NCBI GenBank assembly: GCA_963838415.1
Contig: CAWIRB010000007.1
Location: forward strand, 16,621 to 80,620
DNA: 64,000 bases
Origin: an uncultured Acidobacteriaceae bacterium
GTDB taxonomy: Bacteria; Acidobacteriota; Terriglobia; Terriglobales; Acidobacteriaceae
Direction: 5' to 3'
Positions 2,177-12,855 of the stretch are shown here, piece after piece. Position numbers and translations under genes: made by a program. Position 1 is the first letter of the stretch. Each line of letters opens with the position of its first letter. The notes beneath the pieces are model-generated. The model was not told the origin of the DNA. It was given only the letters and a program-made list of their open reading frames with translations, and did not search any database.

Positions 2177-2445
2177 GTGCAATGCGATCATGCGCCGATA
2201 CTTGGGGAACAGGGTAGCCAACCAGAACTCATTAGCTGTCCACTTACAAGAAATATGGGGTTCCAACAGGCCCACGTGCTCCCGCTACCATGGCCCTTAC
2301 GATTCGAAAGCAGGGACGGTCGTGACAATGGGTTTGATGTGTTGCCCTGCGGAAATACCATTCAATGCTCCCTTTCCCCGTGTGATGTAAATCACAGCAA
2401 TCCGTGATTCACTGCGTTGACCGCCCCCCACTCCAAACCGTATCC

Positions 2446-2479
2446 TATTGATATTGAAATTGAATTTCATTTTCAATTA
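2446..2479. promoter_or_regulatory. Fur-family-like operator (hexamer array containing a perfect 7-1-7 dyad TGAAATTgAATTTCA at 2455-2469)
   Basis: AT-rich island ATTGATATTGAAATTGAATTTCATTTTCAATTAG lies 21-54 nt upstream of the Ftr1 start codon. It matches 5/7 per half-site to the Fur 7-1-7 consensus TGATAATnATTATCA. Confidence 0.45.
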
Positions 2480-2499: not shown

Positions 2500-3750
2500 A
2501 TGCTCCAGGCATTCATCATTACCCTTCGCGAAGGCGTCGAAGCGGCTCTCATCGTCGGTATTACCCTCGCCTATCTCGCCAAAATCGGCCGCAACGATCT
2601 CCGCAAATCGGTCTACGCCGCGCTGGCCGCCGCTTTTGCCGGATCGATTGGCGTCGCCGTCATCGTCTCCCGCTTTAAGCTCAATGAAGACATCTTCGAA
2701 GGCTGGGTCATGCTCATCGCCGCCGTCTTCGTCATCACCATGATCGTCTTCATGATGAAGACCGGCCGCAAGCTCAAGGGCCAGATCGAAAGCAAGGTCG
2801 GTTTGTTTGCCCGCGGCGACGCCTGGATCGGCCTCTTCCTCTTTATCTTCCTCATGGTCATGCGCGAAGGCGTCGAGACGGTTCTCATCCTCTCCGCTGT
2901 GACCTTGAACTCCAGCGAACTGATGAGCTTTATCGGCACCCTCTCCGGCGTGGTCGTCGCCGTCCTCTTCGGCGTCATGTTCGTTAAGGGCAGCGTCAAG
3001 ATCAATCTCCAGAAATTCTTCAAAGTCACCACCGCGATTCTCTTCCTCGTTGCCGGACAGCTCATCATCTCCGGCCTGCACGAACTCTCCGAGAATGGCG
3101 TGCTTCCCTCTTCTCGTCAGGAGATGGCCATCATCGGTCCTATCGTGCGCAACGATTTCTTTTTCTTCGTCACCATCCTCGTTCTGGCCGCGCTCATGGT
3201 GCTGTTTGAAATGAAGAGCCGGCAACCGGTCGAACTTCCTCCCGCCGGCGCTGCCCGACGGAAAGCCCTCTGGACCGCCCGCCGCGAGCGTCTCTGGATG
3301 GCCTCGGTTTACGTCTGCTCGTTCATCTTTATCGTGATGGTCACCGCCGGCTTCATTTACGAGAAGAGCGCCAGCGCGCTTTCGCCCGCTACTGAAGTGA
3401 CTTTCGTTGACGGTAAGATTTCCATTCCCCTGAAGCAGGTTTACGATGGCGAACTCCATCGCTTCGAGGCCAAGGAAGGCGGTGTCGAAGTCCGCTTCTG
3501 GCTCTATCAAAAGCCCGACGGAAAAATCGCCACCCTCTTTGACGCCTGCGAAATCTGCGGCGCGGTCGGATTTTATAAAGGAGCGCAGGGAGTGATCTGT
3601 AAGAATTGCGCCGCTCCCATCAATCCGCAGTCGGTCGGCATGCCCGGCGGCTGCAATCCGATCCCGCTGAAAGCCCAGGTCACCGACGATGCGGTCATTG
3701 TCTCGGAAACCGACGTTGCGGCTGGGCGGCGCTATTTCGAGCAGAAATAA
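2500..3750 (+). CDS. Ftr1/EfeU-family iron permease fused to a C-terminal Cys-rich DUF2318-like module
   Basis: Two REGxE motifs (REGVEAAL, REGVETVL) and multiple TM segments. The C-terminus reads DACEICG..CKNCAAPINP..GGCNPIPL. Confidence 0.8.
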   Translation: MLQAFIITLREGVEAALIVGITLAYLAKIGRNDLRKSVYAALAAAFAGSIGVAVIVSRFKLNEDIFEGWVMLIAAVFVITMIVFMMKTGRKLKGQIESKVGLFARGDAWIGLFLFIFLMVMREGVETVLILSAVTLNSSELMSFIGTLSGVVVAVLFGVMFVKGSVKINLQKFFKVTTAILFLVAGQLIISGLHELSENGVLPSSRQEMAIIGPIVRNDFFFFVTILVLAALMVLFEMKSRQPVELPPAGAARRKALWTARRERLWMASVYVCSFIFIVMVTAGFIYEKSASALSPATEVTFVDGKISIPLKQVYDGELHRFEAKEGGVEVRFWLYQKPDGKIATLFDACEICGAVGFYKGAQGVICKNCAAPINPQSVGMPGGCNPIPLKAQVTDDAVIVSETDVAAGRRYFEQK

Positions 3751-3754
3751 ATAA

Positions 3755-5074
3755 ATGTTTCCTCGCATCGTCTACGAATCGTTCCGCCGCCAGGCCCGCC
3801 GCAAGTTGCTCGCGGGCATCGCCATTACGCTCGGCGTAGCCGTTGCCACCGCCATGATCGCCGTCGCCACCGACATCGGCGACAAGATCAATCGCGAACT
3901 GCGCAGCTACGGCGCTAATCTGGTCGTCACTCCGCAGGAAGACACACTCGACGTGGAAGTCGGCGGCCTCAACTTGAAACCTCCCAGCGACGGCGCATTC
4001 CTCAACGAAGCCGACCTGCCGAAAATCCGTGGCACCTTCTGGCACCACAACATCGTCGGCTTCTCCCCCATGCTGCCCGTTACCGTAAAACTCGGCGCCG
4101 GCAGCGATGCCAAGGACGTCACGCTCCTCGGCACCTACTTCGATAAAGCCCTCCGCTTCGGAAAAGAAGACTTCACCACCGGCGTACGAATCACCCACCC
4201 CTGGTGGAAAGTCTCGTGTTCGGACGGGCGTCTCGCCCCTCCAAGCCGAGTCGAAGACCCGGCAGCCGCATGCAGTTGGCCAAATGATGACTCGCAAAAT
4301 GTCTTGATCGGCGAGCGTCTGGCCGCCAAGCTGTCCAAGCACTCAGGCGACAACCTCGAAATCAACGGCCGCCAACTCACCATCTCCGGCATTCTCTCCA
4401 CCGGCGGCGTCGAAGACGACCAGATCGTCGCGCCGCTCGCCCTGGCCCAGCAGGTTCTCGGCAAACCCGGAGCCGTCCGCCGCGTCTATGTCAGCGCTCT
4501 CACCAAGCCCCCGGATGCCCTCTCCGTCCGCGATCCCAAGTCCATGACTCCCGAGGTTTACGACCGCTGGTACTGTTCGCCCTACGTCGAGTCGATTGCC
4601 TACCAGTTGCAGGAGGCCATTCCACATTCGCACGCCGAACAGATCCGCCAGGTCGCGCAAAACGAAGGCACCGTGCTCTCGCGCATCAAAGGACTCATGC
4701 TGCTGATCACGTTCGCCGCGCTCCTGGCTTCCGCATTGGCCGTTTCCGCCGCCATGGCTACGGCTATCTATGAACGCCGCGTCGAAGTCGGCCTGATGAA
4801 AGCTCTCGGCGCCGGCGACCTCGTCGTCTCGGCGATTTTCTTTGCCGAAGCGCTGCTGCTCGCCCTGGTCGGTGGCCTCGCCGGATTTTCTGCTGGAGCT
4901 CTCCTCGCCCGCCAGATCGGCCGTTCCATTTTCAACTCGCGGATTTCCATCGAGCCCGTGCTCTTTCCCATCATCCTCGGCATCGCCGTCTTCGTGACCT
5001 TCGCCGGAAGCGCCGCCGCCATTCGCCGCGCCGTGAAGTTCGATCCCGTCTTTGCCCTGCGGGGAGAAGGATAA
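3755..5074 (+). CDS. ABC transporter permease, FtsX/MacB type
   Basis: N-terminal TM, a large periplasmic domain, and a C-terminal FtsX 3-TM block (MKALGAG...). Starts 4 nt after the upstream stop. Confidence 0.8.
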   Translation: MFPRIVYESFRRQARRKLLAGIAITLGVAVATAMIAVATDIGDKINRELRSYGANLVVTPQEDTLDVEVGGLNLKPPSDGAFLNEADLPKIRGTFWHHNIVGFSPMLPVTVKLGAGSDAKDVTLLGTYFDKALRFGKEDFTTGVRITHPWWKVSCSDGRLAPPSRVEDPAAACSWPNDDSQNVLIGERLAAKLSKHSGDNLEINGRQLTISGILSTGGVEDDQIVAPLALAQQVLGKPGAVRRVYVSALTKPPDALSVRDPKSMTPEVYDRWYCSPYVESIAYQLQEAIPHSHAEQIRQVAQNEGTVLSRIKGLMLLITFAALLASALAVSAAMATAIYERRVEVGLMKALGAGDLVVSAIFFAEALLLALVGGLAGFSAGALLARQIGRSIFNSRISIEPVLFPIILGIAVFVTFAGSAAAIRRAVKFDPVFALRGEG

Positions 5075-5097: not shown

Positions 5098-6279
5098 ATG
5101 ACGACGAGCACCACTCCCGGCACGCTCCTCACTCCGCTGCAGGTCGCCAATCGCCGTGCCCATGCGCCCCATACTTCCATGTTCATGCGCATGCTTCTTC
5201 GTGCGGCCGTGCTTCGTCGCAGGCGCGCCGCCTCTGCCCTGCTCGCCATGATCGTTGCCGCCGCCGTCGCCACCGCCATGATGAATCTCTACGTCGACGT
5301 GCAAGCCAAGCTCCGCACCGAGTTCCGAAATTATGGCGCCAACCTGGTCGTCGTCGCCAAAGAAGGACAGGCCTTGCCCGCCGACGCGCTGTCCACAGTC
5401 GAATCCGTTCTCGGCGCGAAAACCCTGGCCGTTCCTTTTTCCTACGCCGTCGCTCGCACGAATGACGGACAATCGGTGGTCGTCGTCGGCACGGACTTCG
5501 CTCGCGCCCACCAGTTGAACCACTGGTGGAAGGTCAGCCGTTGGCCCGATGCCCCCAACCAGGCGTTGATCGGCATGCGCGCCGCCGCCGTGGTTGGCCC
5601 CGGAGCAAGCCCCAGTCGCCAGCCTTTTGCACTCACATTCCAGGGCAAGGCGATTCAACTCGTCCCCGCCGGCATGCTCCAGACTGGCGCCGGCGAAGAT
5701 AGCCGTATCTATCTCGATCAATCTGAATTCCAGAACTGGACCGGCGTCGCGCCCTCCACCATAGAAGTCGCTGCCAACGGAACCGCCGCCGATGTCGACG
5801 CATCAATCCGTAAACTCACCCAACTCCTGCCCAATGCCGATATTCGCCCCGTCCGCCAGATCATGGAAGGCGAAGCCAACGTGCTCAATAAAACGCGCGC
5901 CACGCTTTACGCCTCCGCCACCCTCGTCGTGCTCACCTCCGCGCTCTGCGTGCTCGCCACGCTCATCGGATGGGTCTTCGACCGCCGTCGCGACTTCGCC
6001 ATCATGAAAGCGCTGGGCGCGTCCGAACATCTGGTCAACGGATTCTTCGCCGCCGAGGCCGCGGCTTTGGGCGTAGTCGGCGCGATCCTCGGCTTCTTCA
6101 TTGGCATCGCCGTCGCCGTCTGGATTGGACGCGTTAACTTTCACGCGCCTGTCGTGCCGCGTTTCAGCGTCTTTCCCTACATTCTCGCGGGCAGTGTTGC
6201 CGTGGCCCTGCTCTCGGCTGTCCTGCCGATTGTCCTCCTCCGCCGCGTGCAACCGGCTATCATTCTGAGGGGAGAATAG
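5098..6279 (+). CDS. ABC transporter permease, FtsX/MacB type (paralogue)
   Basis: Same architecture (..FRNYGANLVVV.., ..IMKALGAS..). The start could be an internal Met a few codons downstream. Confidence 0.75.
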   Translation: MTTSTTPGTLLTPLQVANRRAHAPHTSMFMRMLLRAAVLRRRRAASALLAMIVAAAVATAMMNLYVDVQAKLRTEFRNYGANLVVVAKEGQALPADALSTVESVLGAKTLAVPFSYAVARTNDGQSVVVVGTDFARAHQLNHWWKVSRWPDAPNQALIGMRAAAVVGPGASPSRQPFALTFQGKAIQLVPAGMLQTGAGEDSRIYLDQSEFQNWTGVAPSTIEVAANGTAADVDASIRKLTQLLPNADIRPVRQIMEGEANVLNKTRATLYASATLVVLTSALCVLATLIGWVFDRRRDFAIMKALGASEHLVNGFFAAEAAALGVVGAILGFFIGIAVAVWIGRVNFHAPVVPRFSVFPYILAGSVAVALLSAVLPIVLLRRVQPAIILRGE

Positions 6280-6287
6280 CGCGTGTC

Positions 6288-6697
6288 TCAACCCTATCGC
6301 TTCGGCTCAGTCCTATCGCTCCGGCTCCGGCTCAGTCCTATCACTCCGGCTCAGTCATATCGCTCCGGCTCGGCCCTATCGCTCCGGCTCAGCCCTATCG
6401 CTCCGGCTCAGTCCTATCGCTCCGGCTCAGCCCTATCGCTCCGGCTCAGCCCCATCACTCCGGCTCAGCCCTATCGCTCCGGCTCAGCCCTATCGCTCCG
6501 GCTCGGCCCTATCGCTCCGGCTCAGCCCTATCGCTCCGGCTCAGCCCTATCGCTCCGGCTCAGTCCTATCACTCCGGCTCAGCCCCATCGCTCCGGCTCA
6601 GTCCTATCACTCCGGCTCAGCCCCATCGCTCCGGCTCAGTCATATCGCTCCGGCTCGGCCCTATCGCTCCGGCTCCGGCTCAGTCCTATCGCTTCGT
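6288..6697 (+). repeat. tandem array, about 21 copies of a 19-bp unit (consensus CTCAGCCCTATCGCTCCGG)
   Basis: Read directly. Units differ by point variants, and two extra CTCCGG hexamers sit near each end. The array fills the gap between the second permease and the ATPase. Confidence 0.95.
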
Positions 6698-6788
6698 ATC
6701 AGGGTATCGCTTTAGCGATACCGAAACTCGTCGAAGCCAGACGCGCCTTTAGGCGCTGCCCGGCAACACTACAAGAGGTAACATCGGT

Positions 6789-8021
6789 ATGATCCAACTC
6801 AAGAACGTCACCAAGAGTTATCCCGCCAGAGCTGAAGAAAACAATGGCGGACACTCTCTCATCAACGCCCTCGACGACATCTCTCTCTCCATCGCTTCCG
6901 GCGAGTGGGTCGCCATGATGGGCCCCTCCGGCTCCGGCAAGAGCACCATGGTCAATCTCATCGGATGCCTCGACCGCCCCACCACCGGCGAGATCTGGCT
7001 TGACGGACAGAACGTAGCCAGCCTCAGCGCCTCCGACCTCAACCACGTCCGCGCCGAAACTATCGGCTTCGTCTTTCAGCAGTTCCACATGATCCCGTAT
7101 CTCACCGCCGTCGAAAACGTCATGCTTGCGCAATACTTCCACAGCATGACCGACGAAAAGGAAGCCCTGGAAGCTCTCGACCGCGTCGGCCTCAAAGACC
7201 GCGCCGGCCACCTGCCCTCGCAGCTTTCCGGTGGCGAGCAACAGCGTGTTTGCATCGCCCGAGCCCTCATTAACGATCCGAAAATCGTCCTCGCCGACGA
7301 ACCCACCGGCAACCTCGACGCCGTCAATGAAGAAATCGTTCTGCGCCTCCTCCGCGAACTTCACCAGCAGGGCCGCACCATCGTCATGGTGACCCACGAT
7401 CCCGTGGTCGCGCGTCTGGCCGACCGCCGCATCGAACTCCACCATGGAAAAATCGCCGCCCAGGAAGTCTTCGCCATGGCCGACGATGAGCAGTTCGACG
7501 AAGTGCTGGAAGAACTGTTTGCCTTGGAAGAGCACGGCCAAATCGCTGAGATCGGACGCATGGAAGTGCACGGCGCTCTGCCCGTTTCCATCGCCGTCGA
7601 AAAAATGGCGGCTATGGGATTGGTAACCACCCGCCCCCACCCCCCCGAAGGCCACGATCACAAGCCCTTCGTGAATCCCTGCCACGACGCACTGAAGCCG
7701 GCCGGCTTTTCGACGGGTGACGGCTCTGCCATCGTCGAACTCACCGCGCGTGGACACCAGCGCGCCGCCGACATCATCCGCCGCCACCGCCTCGCCGAAC
7801 GTCTCTTCACCGATTCGCTCGCCATGGACAGCGAAACCGAAATCGAGCAGCAGGCCTGCAAGTTCGAGCACATCCTCTCACCCGAAGCCACCGACAAAAT
7901 CTGCACCTTCCTCAACCACCCGCGCACCTGCCCTCACGGCGCCCCGATTCCGCCCGGCCCCTGCTGCGGACGTGGCGCCGAACCGAGGCAGACCGCTGGT
8001 GCCTTGTCCCGTCAACATTAG
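6789..8021 (+). CDS. ABC ATPase (MacB/LolD-like) fused to a C-terminal DtxR/MntR-like metalloregulator module
   Basis: Walker [10 protein letters not shown], signature LSGGEQQR and Walker B ILADEPT in aa 1-225. aa ~230-410 contain [10 protein letters not shown]...ACKFEH...CPHGAPIP, typical of iron-dependent repressors. Confidence 0.85.
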
Positions 8022-8159: not shown

Positions 8160-8759
8160 CTACTTCTTCCCAAAGAACTTCCCCAACCCCAAGCGAACCT
8201 GCACCGTATTCAGTCCCGGATTCGGCACCGTCAACCCGGCATTCGAGATGTGCATATACCGGACATCCACCGACCACGTATGTTCACGGAAGAAATACAT
8301 TCCAAAAGCCGCGCCCGTCGTAAAGTTAATCGTCGACGTTCCCGCCGGAACTTCATGCGTTGTAAACAGCGTACCGCCATTTAATTCGAGATACGGAGCA
8401 ACATGTCCGTGCGTGGCGAAAATCCATTTGAAGCCTACCGGATTTACTCCCCCGCCGTAAGCCGTATTGGAGCGCTGGAACACCACAAATGCCGGCACCG
8501 CATCGACCGCAAGCTCGAAACGTCCGCTAAGAAAGCCCGGCAAGTGCGGCTGCGTCAAAATCCATCCATAGCGCACTCCCGCGTTCCAGACGCTGGTATC
8601 CTTGGTTCCACCGGGAACGGAATAGCCGCCCCCCGTCCAAACCTCGACTTCGTGGCCGCCCTCCTCCGGGCGGTCCTGGGCCAGCGTCAACCGCGTTGTG
8701 AGGAGCAACGTAAGAAGCAAGAAAACAACGGAGGCCAGACCTCGAAGGGATCGCGTCAT
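8160..8759 (-). CDS. outer-membrane acyloxyacyl hydrolase / PagL-like lipid A deacylase family protein
   Basis: Signal peptide, beta-barrel-like alternating pattern, C-terminal ..DVRYMHISNAG.. motif. Start chosen at the internal Met (MTRSLRGLAS). Confidence 0.55.
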   Translation of the reverse strand: MTRSLRGLASVVFLLLTLLLTTRLTLAQDRPEEGGHEVEVWTGGGYSVPGGTKDTSVWNAGVRYGWILTQPHLPGFLSGRFELAVDAVPAFVVFQRSNTAYGGGVNPVGFKWIFATHGHVAPYLELNGGTLFTTHEVPAGTSTINFTTGAAFGMYFFREHTWSVDVRYMHISNAGLTVPNPGLNTVQVRLGLGKFFGKK

Positions 8760-8878
8760 AAGTATGATCAGGGTCGAAACAGAACGATACCCGAACCCAA
8801 ACCAGGAAACAAATCCTTCGGTCCGCGGCACAACTCCTTGGCTCACCTCAGCACGGTGCTTGCCCCGCAACCCGCGTT

Positions 8879-9622
8879 TTACAGGCCCAGTCCCCCATCC
8901 ACCGCCAGCACCTGCCCGGTAATAAACTTCGGAGCCGTCGCAAAGAACATCACCGCCGCGGCAATCTCCGTTGCCGTTCCGTTGCGCTCCATCGGCGTCC
9001 GCTTCGCCGTCTTTTTCATGAACGCCGCCGCCGATTTTTCGCCCAGATCAATCACACCCGGAGCCACCGCATTCACCGCAATCTCCGGCGCCAGTGCTTT
9101 CGCCATGCCTTTTGTCAGCATATGCACCGCCGCCTTCGACGAGCAATAGTGCACATGGGTCGCCCACGGGCGCAGTCCGCCCAGCGACCCCATATTAATG
9201 ATGCGCCCTCTGCGCTTTCTCAAATACGGCAGCGCCTCACGCGACACCAGAAAAGGTCCGCGCGCATTCGAAGCGAAAATCGCATCCCACTCCGCGACCG
9301 TAATCCTCTCAAACTCCACGTCCTCATAATTCGCGGCGTTATTCACCAGTACGTCAATGCCGCCCAGTTCCTTCGCCACTTCTTTCACCATCTCGCGGAC
9401 ACTTCTCTCCTCGGTAATATCGCAGCGTACCGCCAGCGCTTCCACGCCATGTTGCGCCAACTCTCCCACCACCGCCCGCGCCTCGCGCGCCGACTCGCGA
9501 TAGGTAATCGCCACGTCGGCGCCGTTTTCCGCCGCCGCCAAAGCAATCGCCCGCCCCAGGCGCTTTGCCCCGCCCGTTACCACCATCGTCTTTCCAGAAA
9601 GCGCTCCGCCGTTGGTCGTCAT
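8879..9622 (-). CDS. SDR-family oxidoreductase
   Basis: TGGAKRLGRAIA Rossmann motif, NNAA, and YxxxK region (YCSSKAAV). Confidence 0.85.
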   Translation of the reverse strand: MTTNGGALSGKTMVVTGGAKRLGRAIALAAAENGADVAITYRESAREARAVVGELAQHGVEALAVRCDITEERSVREMVKEVAKELGGIDVLVNNAANYEDVEFERITVAEWDAIFASNARGPFLVSREALPYLRKRRGRIINMGSLGGLRPWATHVHYCSSKAAVHMLTKGMAKALAPEIAVNAVAPGVIDLGEKSAAAFMKKTAKRTPMERNGTATEIAAAVMFFATAPKFITGQVLAVDGGLGL

Positions 9623-9726
9623 CGTGATGATTCTATATCCAGAGTTGCTGCGCCCTTCAACGCCCTCAGCCCACCAGTCCTCAGCCACCCTTGGAAAGCC
9701 CTCTTCCAACTGATAAACTGCCACCC

Positions 9727-10046: not shown

Positions 10047-11624
10047 ATGGCCCGTACCCAGTTGTACGCCGATCCCGCTGACCGCTTTGTTCACGACATC
10101 GTTCTCCACAGCTGCAAACGGAACGCCGGCAAGACAGCTCTGATCGACAGTTCATCCGGACGTCGTCTCACTTTCGCCGAATATGGCGACCTCGTCGAGT
10201 CCCTCGCCCGCGGCCTCATCTCCGCCGGACTCGCTCCCGGAGAAGTCGTTGCTATCTTCCTCCCCAACTCCTGGGAATTTGCCATCACCTACCATGCAGC
10301 CACGCTCGCCGGAGGCATTCCCACGCTTCTCAATCCCTCCTACCGCGAGCGCGAAATCCGCTACCAACTGGAAAGTTCTGGTGCCGTTTTCCTGATCACC
10401 GATGCCCCGCTTCTCGAGAACGTAAACCTCGCCGGCCTGCCCGCATTGCGCCGCGTCTTCACCACCCGAACCCACACTGGCAATGCCGGTTCTGAGGACT
10501 TTGCCCATCTCCTCCGACCCGCCTCCGCCACCTTTCCCGCGCCCGCCCAGAACTCCCAACAGACCATCGCCGCCCTTCCCTATTCCAGCGGCACCACCGG
10601 ATTGCCCAAAGGTGTCATGCTCTCGCATTACAACCTGGTCGCCAACGTCTATCAGATCCTCGGCCCCAATGCCGCCATTCTCACGCCCCATGACGTCATG
10701 CTTTGCTTCCTGCCCCTCTACCACATCTACGGACTCACCGTGGCCCTCACTCTTTCTCTCAGCCTCGGGTCCACCCTCGTCCTCATGCCCCGCTTCGATC
10801 TGCAAAAACTCTTCGCCCTTTTAGTTCAGGAGGGCGTCACCATGATGCCCATGGTCCCTCCCGCCATCAATGCGCTCTGCCAGGCCGCCGCTGCCGGCAT
10901 CTTCCCCAGGAACCACAAAGTCCGCTGGATCAAGTCCGGCGCCGCCCCACTCGCTCCTGAACTTGCCCGCCGCCTGTCCGACCTCACCGGCATTATCGTC
11001 ACGCAGGGTTACGGCATGACCGAAGCTTCCCCCGTGACCCACGTCGGTTACATCGCCCCTCCTGAATTGCACCGGCCAGCCTCCATCGGACACCCCTTGG
11101 CCCTCACCGAATGCCGCATCCTCGATCGCAACGGCAACCAGGTCGCGCCCGGTGAAGCCGGCGAACTGGCCATGCGCGGCCCGCAATTCATGCTCGGATA
11201 CTGGAAAGACCCTCAAGCCACCGCCGCCGTTCTGCGCGATGGCTGGTACTTCTCCGGCGACATCGTGCGCGCCGATGCCGACGGCTTTTACTACGTCCTC
11301 GACCGCAGCAAAGAAATGATCAAGTACAAAGGATTCCCCGTTGCCCCCGCCGAAGTCGAGTCCCTCCTGCTCGAACATGCCGCCGTCCGCGATTGTGGCG
11401 TAGTCGCGAAACCCGATCTCGCCGCCGGAGAAATTCCATGCGCCTTTGTCGTGCTTCGCGAAGGCTTCACTCCCTCCGACGCGCTCGACCAGGAACTCCG
11501 CGCCTTCGTCGCCGACCGCCTCGCCCATCACAAGCAGCCCCGCGAAATTCACTTCGTGGATGCCGTCCCGCGCACCCCCTCCGGCAAAATTCTCCGTCGC
11601 GAACTGCGGAAAACGTTTTCTTGA
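10047..11624 (+). CDS. AMP-dependent acyl-CoA synthetase/ligase
   Basis: AMP-binding motif YSSGTTGLPKGV, plus GYGMTE and ..PSGKILRRELR at the C-terminus. Confidence 0.85.
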   Translation: MARTQLYADPADRFVHDIVLHSCKRNAGKTALIDSSSGRRLTFAEYGDLVESLARGLISAGLAPGEVVAIFLPNSWEFAITYHAATLAGGIPTLLNPSYREREIRYQLESSGAVFLITDAPLLENVNLAGLPALRRVFTTRTHTGNAGSEDFAHLLRPASATFPAPAQNSQQTIAALPYSSGTTGLPKGVMLSHYNLVANVYQILGPNAAILTPHDVMLCFLPLYHIYGLTVALTLSLSLGSTLVLMPRFDLQKLFALLVQEGVTMMPMVPPAINALCQAAAAGIFPRNHKVRWIKSGAAPLAPELARRLSDLTGIIVTQGYGMTEASPVTHVGYIAPPELHRPASIGHPLALTECRILDRNGNQVAPGEAGELAMRGPQFMLGYWKDPQATAAVLRDGWYFSGDIVRADADGFYYVLDRSKEMIKYKGFPVAPAEVESLLLEHAAVRDCGVVAKPDLAAGEIPCAFVVLREGFTPSDALDQELRAFVADRLAHHKQPREIHFVDAVPRTPSGKILRRELRKTFS

Positions 11625-11709
11625 CTTTCACCGATGGCACTTCGTCCCACAAACCGGCAACGCCCGCCCCGCATACCGTACATCACGCCGTGTAAAATGT
11701 CCTTGTGCC

Positions 11710-12855
11710 ATGACCCTCTCCACCTTTGTCGCCAAATCCGCTTTTCGCAACAGGAAACGCAGCCTGCTGACCGTCGCCAGCATCGCTTTTTCACTGCTCC
11801 TGCTCTGCATCATGCTGTGTGTCTGGCGCAGCTTTTATATCGACAAGGGAGCGCCTGATTCCGCGCTCCGCATCATGACCCGCCACAAGGTGTCCCTCGC
11901 CAACTTTCTTCCTATCTATTACCGCGACAAAATTCGCACCGTGCCTGGCGTCGTGCATGTCGTTCCCATGACCTGGTTCGGGGGCACTTATAAAGACAAC
12001 AAACCGGAAAATTACTTCGCCCAGTTCGCCACCGATCCCGACGAATACTTCGACGTTGCTGCCGACAAAATCATGCCCGCCGACCAACTCGCCGCCTGGA
12101 AGCGCGATCGCGCCGGCTGTGTCGTCGATGTCGTGCTGGCCGAGAAACATCACTGGAAGATCGGCGACCACATCATCCTGCAAGGCACCATCTTTCCCGC
12201 CAATCTTGACCTCACCGTCCGCGGCATGTACACCATCGATCCCCCTACCAGCGGCCTTTTCTTCCATACCAAGTACCTGGAGGAATCCGTCGACTGGTTC
12301 AAAGACACCGCCGGCTTTTTCTTCACTCGCGTCGACACCCCGGAAAACATGCCCCGAGCCGCCCGGGCCATCGACGAAATGTTCCACGCCACTCCCGTTC
12401 CCACCAAGAGCGAGAGCGAACAAGCCTTCAAGCTCGATTTCATCGCGACTCTCGGCAGCGTCAAGGCCTTCATCCTCAGCATCTGCGGAGCCGTACTCTT
12501 CACCACCCTCCTGGTTTGCGCCAACACCATGGCCATGTCCATCCGCGAACGCACCCGCGAAGTCGCCGTCCTCCGCACTCTCGGCTTCACCCGTGGTCGC
12601 ATCCTCAAATTGCTCTTGAGCGAATCGATCGCGATTTCTGTCATCGGAGGCTTGATCGGCGTCGCCCTCGCCACCGGAGCAATCGTATTTATGGCCCGCC
12701 CTGGCATCGGGTTGCCAGTCTCCATGCACATGACCGCGGGCACCGCCCTCGTCGCCCTCGCGGCTGCGCTTCTCGTTGGATTCGTCAGCGGCCTGATCCC
12801 CTCATACCGTGCCTCGCATCTCGGCATCGTCGACGCCCTGCGCTACATCGGCTGA
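11710..12855 (+). CDS. FtsX-family ABC transporter permease (no adjacent ATPase)
   Basis: N-terminal TM (LLTVASIAFSLLLLC), extracytoplasmic domain, C-terminal FtsX block (RTREVAVLRTLGF). Start taken at ATG 11710 to avoid overlap with the ligase. Confidence 0.7.
   Translation: MTLSTFVAKSAFRNRKRSLLTVASIAFSLLLLCIMLCVWRSFYIDKGAPDSALRIMTRHKVSLANFLPIYYRDKIRTVPGVVHVVPMTWFGGTYKDNKPENYFAQFATDPDEYFDVAADKIMPADQLAAWKRDRAGCVVDVVLAEKHHWKIGDHIILQGTIFPANLDLTVRGMYTIDPPTSGLFFHTKYLEESVDWFKDTAGFFFTRVDTPENMPRAARAIDEMFHATPVPTKSESEQAFKLDFIATLGSVKAFILSICGAVLFTTLLVCANTMAMSIRERTREVAVLRTLGFTRGRILKLLLSESIAISVIGGLIGVALATGAIVFMARPGIGLPVSMHMTAGTALVALAAALLVGFVSGLIPSYRASHLGIVDALRYIG

Follow-up and report, generated by a model that had tools for sequence, protein, structure and literature searches.

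In the prevailing view, bacteria regulate iron uptake almost wholly through transcription, by Fur or DtxR/IdeR, or through proteolysis, by FeoC. The described systems that come closest to the one considered here combine metal sensing, transport and regulation in other ways. In Chlamydia trachomatis, a permease and a repressor are fused in YtgC-YtgR (CT069), which undergoes cleavage, and fusions of this sort have been reported from 11 phyla (PMC5599777). Sensor domains are also found on the motors of ATP-binding cassette (ABC) transporters: in MetNI and ModBC, a C-terminal domain binds the cytoplasmic substrate and trans-inhibits transport (PMC10710835), and the FbpC ATPase carries a C-terminal regulatory domain (PMC2896483). 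The Campylobacter jejuni iron-uptake system Cj1658-1665, in turn, is made up of cFtr1-P19, an FtsX-type ABC part and thioredoxins, and the type VII ABC part is required in FTR1/P19-type iron uptake in a role that is still undefined (PMC6083913). Here we analyse a 64,000-nucleotide stretch of DNA (hereafter, the window) from an uncultured Acidobacteriaceae bacterium (assembly GCA_963838415.1, contig CAWIRB010000007.1, positions 16,621 to 80,620 of the forward strand), in which an FTR1-containing operon ends in a gene that joins an ABC ATPase to a DtxR-like module. We put the probability at roughly one half that the C-terminal half of this protein is a DtxR-derived sensor of Fe(II) or another divalent metal whose present role is to regulate the transporter motor and not to act as a transcription factor. 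The gene and its parts are laid out as follows.

6789-8021, forward strand: fusion open reading frame, ATG start, 410 aa.
6789-7451, forward strand: nucleotide-binding domain (NBD) of the MacB/LolD/FtsE type, aa 1-221 (motifs, Pfam, NCBIfam, Foldseek).
7452-7778, forward strand: connecting helix, DtxR helix 1 (E238, E241) and degenerate winged helix-turn-helix (wHTH), aa 222-330 (model, Foldseek, IdeR alignment).
7779-7967, forward strand: DtxR metal-binding/dimerisation domain, aa 331-393 (PF02742, invariant columns).
7968-8021, forward strand: variable C-terminal tail, aa 394-410, and stop codon, the end of the operon.

Each of the two ideas combined in this protein has precedent, since DtxR domains are known on ABC subunits and sensor domains on NBDs. 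An earlier note on this DNA, made from the sequence alone, had known of no description of metal-dependent trans-inhibition or of a self-repressing ATPase for Ftr1-associated ABC systems, which stands only in part: the YtgC-YtgR fusion (PMC5599777) and an FTR1/P19-linked FtsX-type ABC system (PMC6083913) were already known, whereas no paper on an ATPase-DtxR fusion was found in a literature search that left most subscription-journal papers outside its reach. YtgC-YtgR and the fusion are alike in placing a DtxR-like module at the C-terminus of a metal-uptake ABC subunit encoded in the transporter operon (PMC5599777). By contrast, YtgR sits on the permease of a TroBCD-type (cluster A-I) importer and the fusion module on the ATPase of a MacB-type system; YtgR has a recognisable DtxR-type HTH and binds its own promoter, whereas the fusion has an HTH without the DNA-contact residues and a promoter with a Fur-type global box. 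The C2 domain of MetN, the TOBE domains of ModC and MalK and the regulatory domain of FbpC follow the NBD and pair under the NBD dimer, and the module is likewise C-terminal to its NBD. Those domains have ACT-like or TOBE beta folds, whereas the module consists of a DtxR wHTH and a helical dimerisation domain; its ligand would be a transition metal held through Glu, His and Cys, unlike the ligands of MetN and ModC, and its host is a type VII mechanotransducer. DtxR, IdeR and MntR themselves are free proteins, from which the module differs in being fused, in an undetected PF01325, in replaced DNA contacts, in an additional Cys4His2 set and in a 30-aa wing insertion.

The N-terminal half is, to judge from its sequence, a type VII (MacB/LolD/FtsE-like) ABC ATPase partnered with the two FtsX/MacB_PCD permease genes directly upstream. 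Specifically, Pfam places ABC_tran at aa 28-173 (E 1e-35), the best NCBIfam matches over aa 1-227 are MacB (4.9e-68), LolD (4.1e-63) and FtsE (3.8e-60), and the NBD motifs are intact (Walker A GPSGSGKS, signature LSGGEQQR, Walker B IVLADE with the catalytic Glu, and H-loop VTHD), all of which agrees with the earlier description of a standard MacB/LolD-like NBD in the first ~225 aa. Since all three NCBIfam scores lie far under the equivalog cut-offs, the domain is not regarded as an orthologue of MacB, LolD or FtsE. The top Foldseek matches to a full-length model (MJ0796, MacB, LolD and FtsE) reflect the NBD alone. A Shine-Dalgarno-like AGAGG lies ~11 nt 5' of the start of the open frame, and databases annotate the product merely as an 'ATP-binding cassette domain-containing protein'.

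The C-terminal half contains a DtxR/IdeR-like two-domain module (aa 222-393), which a subfamily profile and a structure model place in the two-domain DtxR fold, a wHTH followed by a dimerisation/metal domain. The second of these domains is recognised directly: Fe_dep_repr_C (PF02742) matches at aa 319-388 over 69 of its 70 profile positions (E 1.9e-25), and phmmer with the fusion protein returns IdeR at 4e-15 and DtxR at 7e-11. The first is not recognised in this way: the DtxR HTH family PF01325 is absent from the fusion protein in a Pfam sequence search at E<=1, and when 1.84 billion representative proteins were searched, the alignments to ordinary DtxRs covered only the final 80 residues of the module. 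By contrast, a profile built for the subfamily aligns end to end with IdeR (residues 6-229) and DtxR (residues 6-224) at E 6e-31. An AlphaFold2 (AF2) model of aa 222-410, built from a 105-sequence alignment, reached a predicted local distance difference test score (pLDDT) of 84.1 and a predicted template-modelling score (pTM) of 0.76. Its topology runs helix, short helix, helix, strand, disordered insert, strand, long helix, and it superposes on two-domain IdeR/DtxR with a target-normalised TM score of 0.76-0.80 and a root-mean-square deviation of ~3 Å over 157-165 columns (Foldseek). In this model DtxR helix 1, with E238 and E241, is the continuation of one long helix that begins where the NBD ends. 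The wing hairpin is split by a 30-aa His/Cys-rich insertion of low confidence (aa 283-312, nt 7635-7724), whose residues include H284, H289, H291, C298 and H299. A third, SH3/FeoA domain is missing: Pfam gives no FeoA match and the protein stops 17 residues past the CC motif, a lack that the module shares with MntR and two-domain IdeR. The full iron-dependent repressor that had been read into this half thus survives as a metal/dimerisation domain and, on the profile, model and superposition, as a wHTH fold, but without PF01325, without an SH3/FeoA domain, with an interrupted wing and with IdeR/DtxR DNA-contact positions that are not conserved; among the Pfam families by which it was to be recognised, ABC_tran and Fe_dep_repr_C were found and PF01325 and FeoA were not.

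Metal-ligand positions were transferred from DtxR/IdeR through the IdeR alignment, and their conservation was scored over 105 aligned members of the subfamily, 23 fused and 82 free. The ancillary-site residues H79, E83 and H98 correspond to H333, E337 and E353 of the fusion, and the primary-site residues M10, C102, E105 and H106 to E238, C357, E360 and H361; in addition, R13 in helix 1 corresponds to E241. This mapping reproduces exactly the alignment made earlier by eye, in which H79, E83, C102, E105 and H106 were kept and H98 was replaced by E. We take E238 and E241 to be the counterparts of MntR D8 and E11. The module accordingly holds Glu at the M10 position, as does MntR with D8 in kind, and retains C102, as in DtxR, and from the alignment all primary and ancillary DtxR ligand positions appear to be occupied by competent residues. 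No variation is seen at E241, E337, C357, E360 and H361, and hardly any at H333; E238 varies only in the Acidoferrum clade, where it is His, and E353 is E or H in most members and H, S, R or Q in Acidoferrum. A further Cys/His set is equally persistent, with C372, H377, C381, C392 and C393 invariant in the 105 members and H383 present in 80 of the 82 free ones. None of these six residues occurs at the aligned positions of IdeR, and DtxR is not known to have them either. C381 stands at the position of DtxR S126, which we take to line an anion pocket adjoining the ancillary metal site. The His/Cys-rich loops are specific to lineages (the wing insert in Terriglobales, the linker HGPSHPLNCPLVNTGDCC in Acidoferrum), and their composition fits a metal-handling role.

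The fusion is, on the comparison of related sequences, real, ancient and selected. Of 80 related genome loci, 79 have Walker A and the RHRLAERLF motif in a single uninterrupted frame, and a contig end cuts the other, so that the single gene proposed earlier, with no split at ~7470, is borne out. PF00005 and PF02742 occur together in all 240 protein clusters among the matches listed, 120 around the window protein and 120 around the Candidatus (Ca.) Acidoferrum clade; with the frame intact in the loci and every listed cluster fused, a frameshift or sequencing artefact is ruled out. As for how widespread the fusion is, a question that had been raised with the claim, species-level genomes with a relative number at least 483. 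Ca. Solibacter has a 409-aa protein, of fused length, that shares a cluster with a fused fragment, and a few divergent short variants (P0139, P0215, P0137 and P0143) come from metagenome reads. Proteins of the clade annotated as Ca. Acidoferrum are 53-56% identical to the window protein, and Terriglobales and Ca. Acidoferrum have the same four-gene operon ending in the ATPase-DtxR fusion. Between the two clades, the metal/dimerisation domain is 69% identical, the NBD 62% and HTH helices H2-H3 24%; the metal/dimerisation domain is thus the most conserved segment of the protein and H2-H3 the least conserved structured part.

The three genes that precede the fusion in the operon are the following.

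2500-3750, forward strand: gene 1, FTR1 iron permease fused to an FtrD-like/DUF2318 domain, 416 aa (Pfam FTR1 5.7e-37, FtrD-like 1.1e-28).
3755-5074, forward strand: gene 2, MacB-type permease (MacB_PCD and FtsX), 439 aa.
5098-6279, forward strand: gene 3, second MacB-type permease (MacB_PCD and FtsX), 393 aa.

One ATPase gene thus serves two different permease genes, and the NBD would therefore be a homodimer. The operon resembles Cj1658-1665 in gene content and gene order, with FTR1, a DUF2318/FtrD-like domain, a pair of FtsX permeases and one ATPase behind a Fur box (PMC6083913). It departs from the Campylobacter system in the fusion of FTR1 with the FtrD-like domain, in the DtxR module borne by the ATPase, and in the lack of P19, thioredoxin and FMN-binding genes, none of which is found between 2500 and 8021.

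Three elements that may bear on transcription of the operon lie upstream of FTR1.

2381-2396, forward strand: perfect CRP-like palindrome TGTGATGTAAATCACA, ~20 nt upstream of the -35 hexamer.
2417-2446, forward strand: operon promoter, -35 TTGACC, 18-nt spacer, -10 TATCCT (promoter scan).
2449-2475, forward strand: Fur-box-like operator, two overlapping 21-bp palindromes offset by 6 bp (TGATATTGAAATTGAATTTCATTTTCA), directly 3' of the -10 hexamer.

The promoter arrangement (GCGTTGAC(C), 17-18 nt, TATCCTA) is kept in related loci, as is the CRP-like palindrome in most of the ~50 related loci compared; from its position, the latter would be an accessory element and suggests a second input into the operon, of the cyclic-nucleotide (cNMP)-receptor type. 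Overlapping palindromes 6 bp apart are typical of Fur boxes. The operator palindrome TGAAATTGAAwTTCAwTTTCA has no other matching site in the window (0 expected by chance) and is conserved in 59 loci. The exact 21-mer also recurs in metagenome contigs: 40 of the 64 downstream open reading frames scored are FTR1 genes, four loci have it upstream of Fur-family genes (three of them confirmed, Pfam FUR 1e-26 to 1e-37), and other genes behind it encode OprB-type porins, a second outer-membrane barrel family (weak Phenol_MetA_deg match) and a PepSY_TM protein. A search for second operator copies within the 16-kb related loci found none and is uninformative. Metagenome loci with the 21-mer before genes other than FTR1 are given below.

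L102, L112, L115, L159, L087, L094, L106, L118, L122, L133, L097, L138, L146 and L147: 21-mer before Fur, porin, barrel or PepSY_TM genes.

Because the exact 21-mer precedes fur, porin and PepSY_TM genes as well, the box is best read as that of a global iron regulon that includes fur, and these loci outline a candidate acidobacterial Fur regulon that is apparently undescribed. The operator can also be exchanged. In six Terriglobia loci (L060, L064, L069, L071, L074 and L076), TTGCAAC-N3-GTTGCAA replaces the Fur-box-like palindrome at the same promoter position upstream of FTR1, and in the Ca. Acidoferrum locus L205 a similar TTGCAA-N5-TTACAA element, at 4060-4085, likewise takes the place of the palindrome in the promoter. 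Such elements imply, as far as sequence can tell, a swap of regulator for an otherwise identical operon.

Several lines of comparison bear on whether the module itself reads DNA. We take the DNA-contact residues of IdeR/DtxR to be R27, R29, S37, P39, T40, Q43, R47, R50 and R60; the IdeR structure entries matched by Foldseek include the P39G and Q43A variants. In the module, R27 is replaced by I, R29 by G, P39 by L, T40 by P, Q43 by I, R50 by A and R60 by A, with R47 changed to K and S42 alone kept in the contact region (IdeR alignment). In the wider subfamily the contact columns are often acidic, the R60 column being 74% D/E and 0% K/R, and across helices 2-3 and the wing basic residues nowhere pass 50% of a column. 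The six loci with TTGCAAC-N3-GTTGCAA have a putative recognition helix identical to that of loci with the Fur-box-like palindrome, and in Acidoferrum L205 this helix is completely different. These patterns suggest that the module is probably no DNA reader, at least of the operator of its own operon.

On the reading that we favour, two copies of the ATPase would sit beneath the pair of FtsX-type permeases, with their DtxR-like domains paired below the NBDs. A rise in cytoplasmic Fe2+ would fill a site formed by helix 1 (E238, E241) together with H333, C357, E360 and H361, with E337 and E353 nearby. The metal would clamp helix 1 onto the dimerisation domain and stabilise the sensor dimer; since the module model shows no break between helix 1 and the final NBD element, the clamp would also fix the connection between NBD and sensor. 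With the open-close cycle of the NBDs restricted, the ATP-driven step of iron uptake would be turned down within seconds, before repression by Fur, much as in the trans-inhibition of MetNI and ModBC (PMC10710835) but through another fold, and transcription of the operon would be controlled separately, through the Fur-box-like operator. Metal binding is known to order the N-terminal region of DtxR. The DtxR dimer is stabilised by metal (PMC5599777). That the module binds metal and dimerises, which metal it binds, and whether the effect is inhibition and not activation, we only infer. The first mechanism offered in the earlier note, direct metal-dependent control of the transport motor, agrees with all of the findings. 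The motor had been assigned earlier to a putative iron importer; the FTR1-linked ABC operon is there, but its ABC part is a type VII (MacB-like) mechanotransducer and not a classical importer, for which reason 'gating of the ATP-driven step' is a better phrase than 'trans-inhibition of import'.

Several observations weigh against an Fe(II)-sensing allosteric domain. To our knowledge, the regulatory domains of NBDs have TOBE or ACT-like folds and not that of DtxR, no trans-inhibition has been documented for type VII ABC systems, and the Cys4His2 set has no counterpart in solved DtxR, IdeR or MntR structures. The full-length AF2 model (pLDDT 56.6) is too poor to place the NBD relative to the sensor. 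The net charge of the wHTH does not discriminate for or against DNA binding, with a mean of -7 in fused proteins and -5 in free relatives, next to ~-3 for canonical DtxR. Finally, the wHTH fold is retained and its helix 3 is nearly invariant within Terriglobales, neither of which a pure spacer would need; the retained wHTH could bind DNA in a mode other than that of DtxR, or bind another protein.

The strong conservation of helix 3 within Terriglobales also speaks for an autoregulator of the YtgC-YtgR kind, in which the DtxR module, cleaved off the ATPase or still tethered to it, would repress the operon or the iron regulon once loaded with Fe2+. Chlamydia provides the precedent: its YtgC permease ends in a DtxR-like repressor, cleavage sets this part free, and it binds its own promoter in an Fe2+-dependent manner (PMC5599777). 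The modelled module keeps the full wHTH and dimerisation fold, in an operon whose palindromic operator abuts the -10 hexamer. That operator, however, is a regulon-wide Fur-type box that also stands upstream of fur genes; operator type shifts without a change in the helix, and the helix shifts without a matching change in the operator. The residues with which IdeR and DtxR touch DNA are lost and often acidic across the subfamily, PF01325 is undetected in ~360 family members among the matches listed, H2-H3 is the least conserved structured part between clades at 24% identity, and the 30-aa insertion breaks the wing. We consider such an autoregulator quite unlikely. The specific proposal of the earlier note, an ATPase that represses its own operon through the palindrome at 2446-2479, is disfavoured on the same grounds: the palindrome is a regulon-wide Fur-box-like element found before fur, OprB and PepSY_TM genes, some loci combine a different operator with an identical putative recognition helix, and the DNA-contact residues of IdeR/DtxR are replaced. 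It is because DNA contacts are lost, the operator is Fur-box-like, and operator and helix do not co-vary that an Fe(II)-sensing allosteric domain is favoured over an autorepressor.

The module might instead serve without regulating the ATPase, as a device for constitutive dimerisation in the manner of MalK or as a chaperone that takes up and buffers Fe2+ leaving FTR1 and hands it on. Fe_dep_repr_C is the dimerisation domain in the DtxR family (Pfam description), an operon with one NBD and two different permeases obliges the NBD to homodimerise, the His/Cys-rich loops vary by lineage as metal-scavenging loops do, and the subfamily is associated with Fe2+ importers. Yet homologous FTR1/P19-linked ABC systems in other phyla run on a plain ATPase (PMC6083913), which leaves no evident need for help with dimerisation, and the module preserves a complete sensor-type ligand set, (near-)invariant across the subfamily, of the kind that drives the allosteric switch of DtxR and MntR, which suggests sensing and not storage; we regard a purely structural or metal-storing role as rather doubtful. 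The six additional Cys/His residues admit still another view, in which C372, C381, C392 and C393 with H377 and H383 would hold an Fe-S cluster or a redox-sensitive Zn, and transport would answer to Fe-S status or oxygen and not to free Fe2+. These residues are missing from IdeR and (near-)invariant in the aligned members, and FeoC, a winged-helix accessory protein of Feo, contains an Fe-S cluster that is sensitive to O2 (PMC10710835). However, conservation is just as high at the classical DtxR/MntR ligand positions, and the C-x8-C-x10-CC spacing corresponds to no recognised cluster motif. A structural Zn site like that of Fur is an equally possible use of the residues, and a cluster or redox sensor seems very unlikely.

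The module has close relatives that are free proteins, of ~216-250 aa, with Fe_dep_repr_C and FeoA domains and the annotation 'metal-dependent transcriptional regulator'. They occur in Planctomycetota, Ca. Brocadia, Nitrospirae, Anaerolineae, Acidobacteriota and archaea. Among the matches listed, PF01325 is annotated in none of 120 free relatives and in none of the ~360 family members, fused and free together. In both genomic contexts examined (n=2), the free proteins adjoin feoB.

L081, 368-1018: free DtxR-like/FeoA protein directly beside feoB.
L082-L084, 5001-5651: free DtxR-like/FeoA protein directly beside feoB.

These proteins share with the module the D-E-x-L-E-x-L-W motif of helix 1, RRHRLAERL, ACxFEH, CPHGxPIPxGxCC and all ligand positions, and differ from it in being free-standing, in their C-terminal FeoA/SH3 domain and in lying beside FeoB instead of ABC/FTR1 genes. 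Because the module belongs to an ABC/FTR1 operon and its free relatives stand by feoB in two contexts, the subfamily is linked to ferrous-iron importers of two unrelated kinds. With no canonical HTH signature and often with acidic residues where DtxR contacts DNA, the free relatives may be accessory sensors of FeoB rather than repressors; a search of the literature found no experimental study of the function of a free DtxR-like/FeoA protein. More tentatively, and at less than even odds, the whole subfamily could have ceased to be transcription factors and become post-translational Fe(II) sensors on ferrous-iron uptake machines, with an FeoA-fused branch beside FeoB and an ATPase-fused branch in Acidobacteria. 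In that event, no type VII ABC transporter before the acidobacterial one would have been known to be metal-gated, and no ABC motor to bear a 'trans-inhibition' domain for a transition metal. Such a subfamily would be defined by D-E-x-L-E-x-L-W, by CPHGxPIPxGxCC and by acidic residues at the positions with which DtxR touches DNA.

Around these genes, the window contains the following further features.

6287-6697, forward strand: 19-bp tandem repeat CTCAGCCCTATCGCTCCGG, ~20-21 copies, head-to-tail (TRF; a motif search gives 21 copies, 0 expected by chance).
8160-8870, strand opposite to the operon: PagL gene, downstream.
8879-9724, strand opposite to the operon: SDR gene, downstream.

The repeat array fills the gap that separates the ATPase gene from the second permease gene. 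Both the array and its unit are absent from all 80 related genome loci, in which this gap measures 1-231 nt. A 169-aa open reading frame at 6283-6792 was considered as a fifth gene of the operon (for example, a thioredoxin) and rejected, being a translation of the 19-bp repeat that is missing in relatives. Just 3' of the array, ~65 nt before the start codon of the ATPase gene, lies a perfect 9-bp inverted repeat (GGTATCGCT-TT-AGCGATACC, 6703-6722), which could form an RNA hairpin affecting the processing or translation of the last gene. On its upstream side the operon is flanked by an SprT-like gene. A further MacB_PCD/FtsX permease gene occurs a few kb downstream of the operon, at 11446-12855 in the window, at 10884-13331 in L205 and from 16564 in L207, and adjoins a gene for an AMP-binding enzyme in the window (10047-11624) and in L207.

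Among soil Acidobacteria this protein is very common, counted in hundreds of protein clusters and in 483 or more genomes at species level, and its function concerns the iron handling of a dominant soil phylum. Should the favoured reading be true, cytoplasmic Fe2+ would exert a fast and direct feedback on the uptake machine, layered over the slower control by Fur, and the sensor module of a transcription factor would have been reused as an allosteric domain. A mechanotransducing ABC system of the MacB type would then have its first regulatory input. Genes beside feoB carry the annotation 'metal-dependent transcriptional regulator' in their thousands, and it may misname the kind of protein that they encode.

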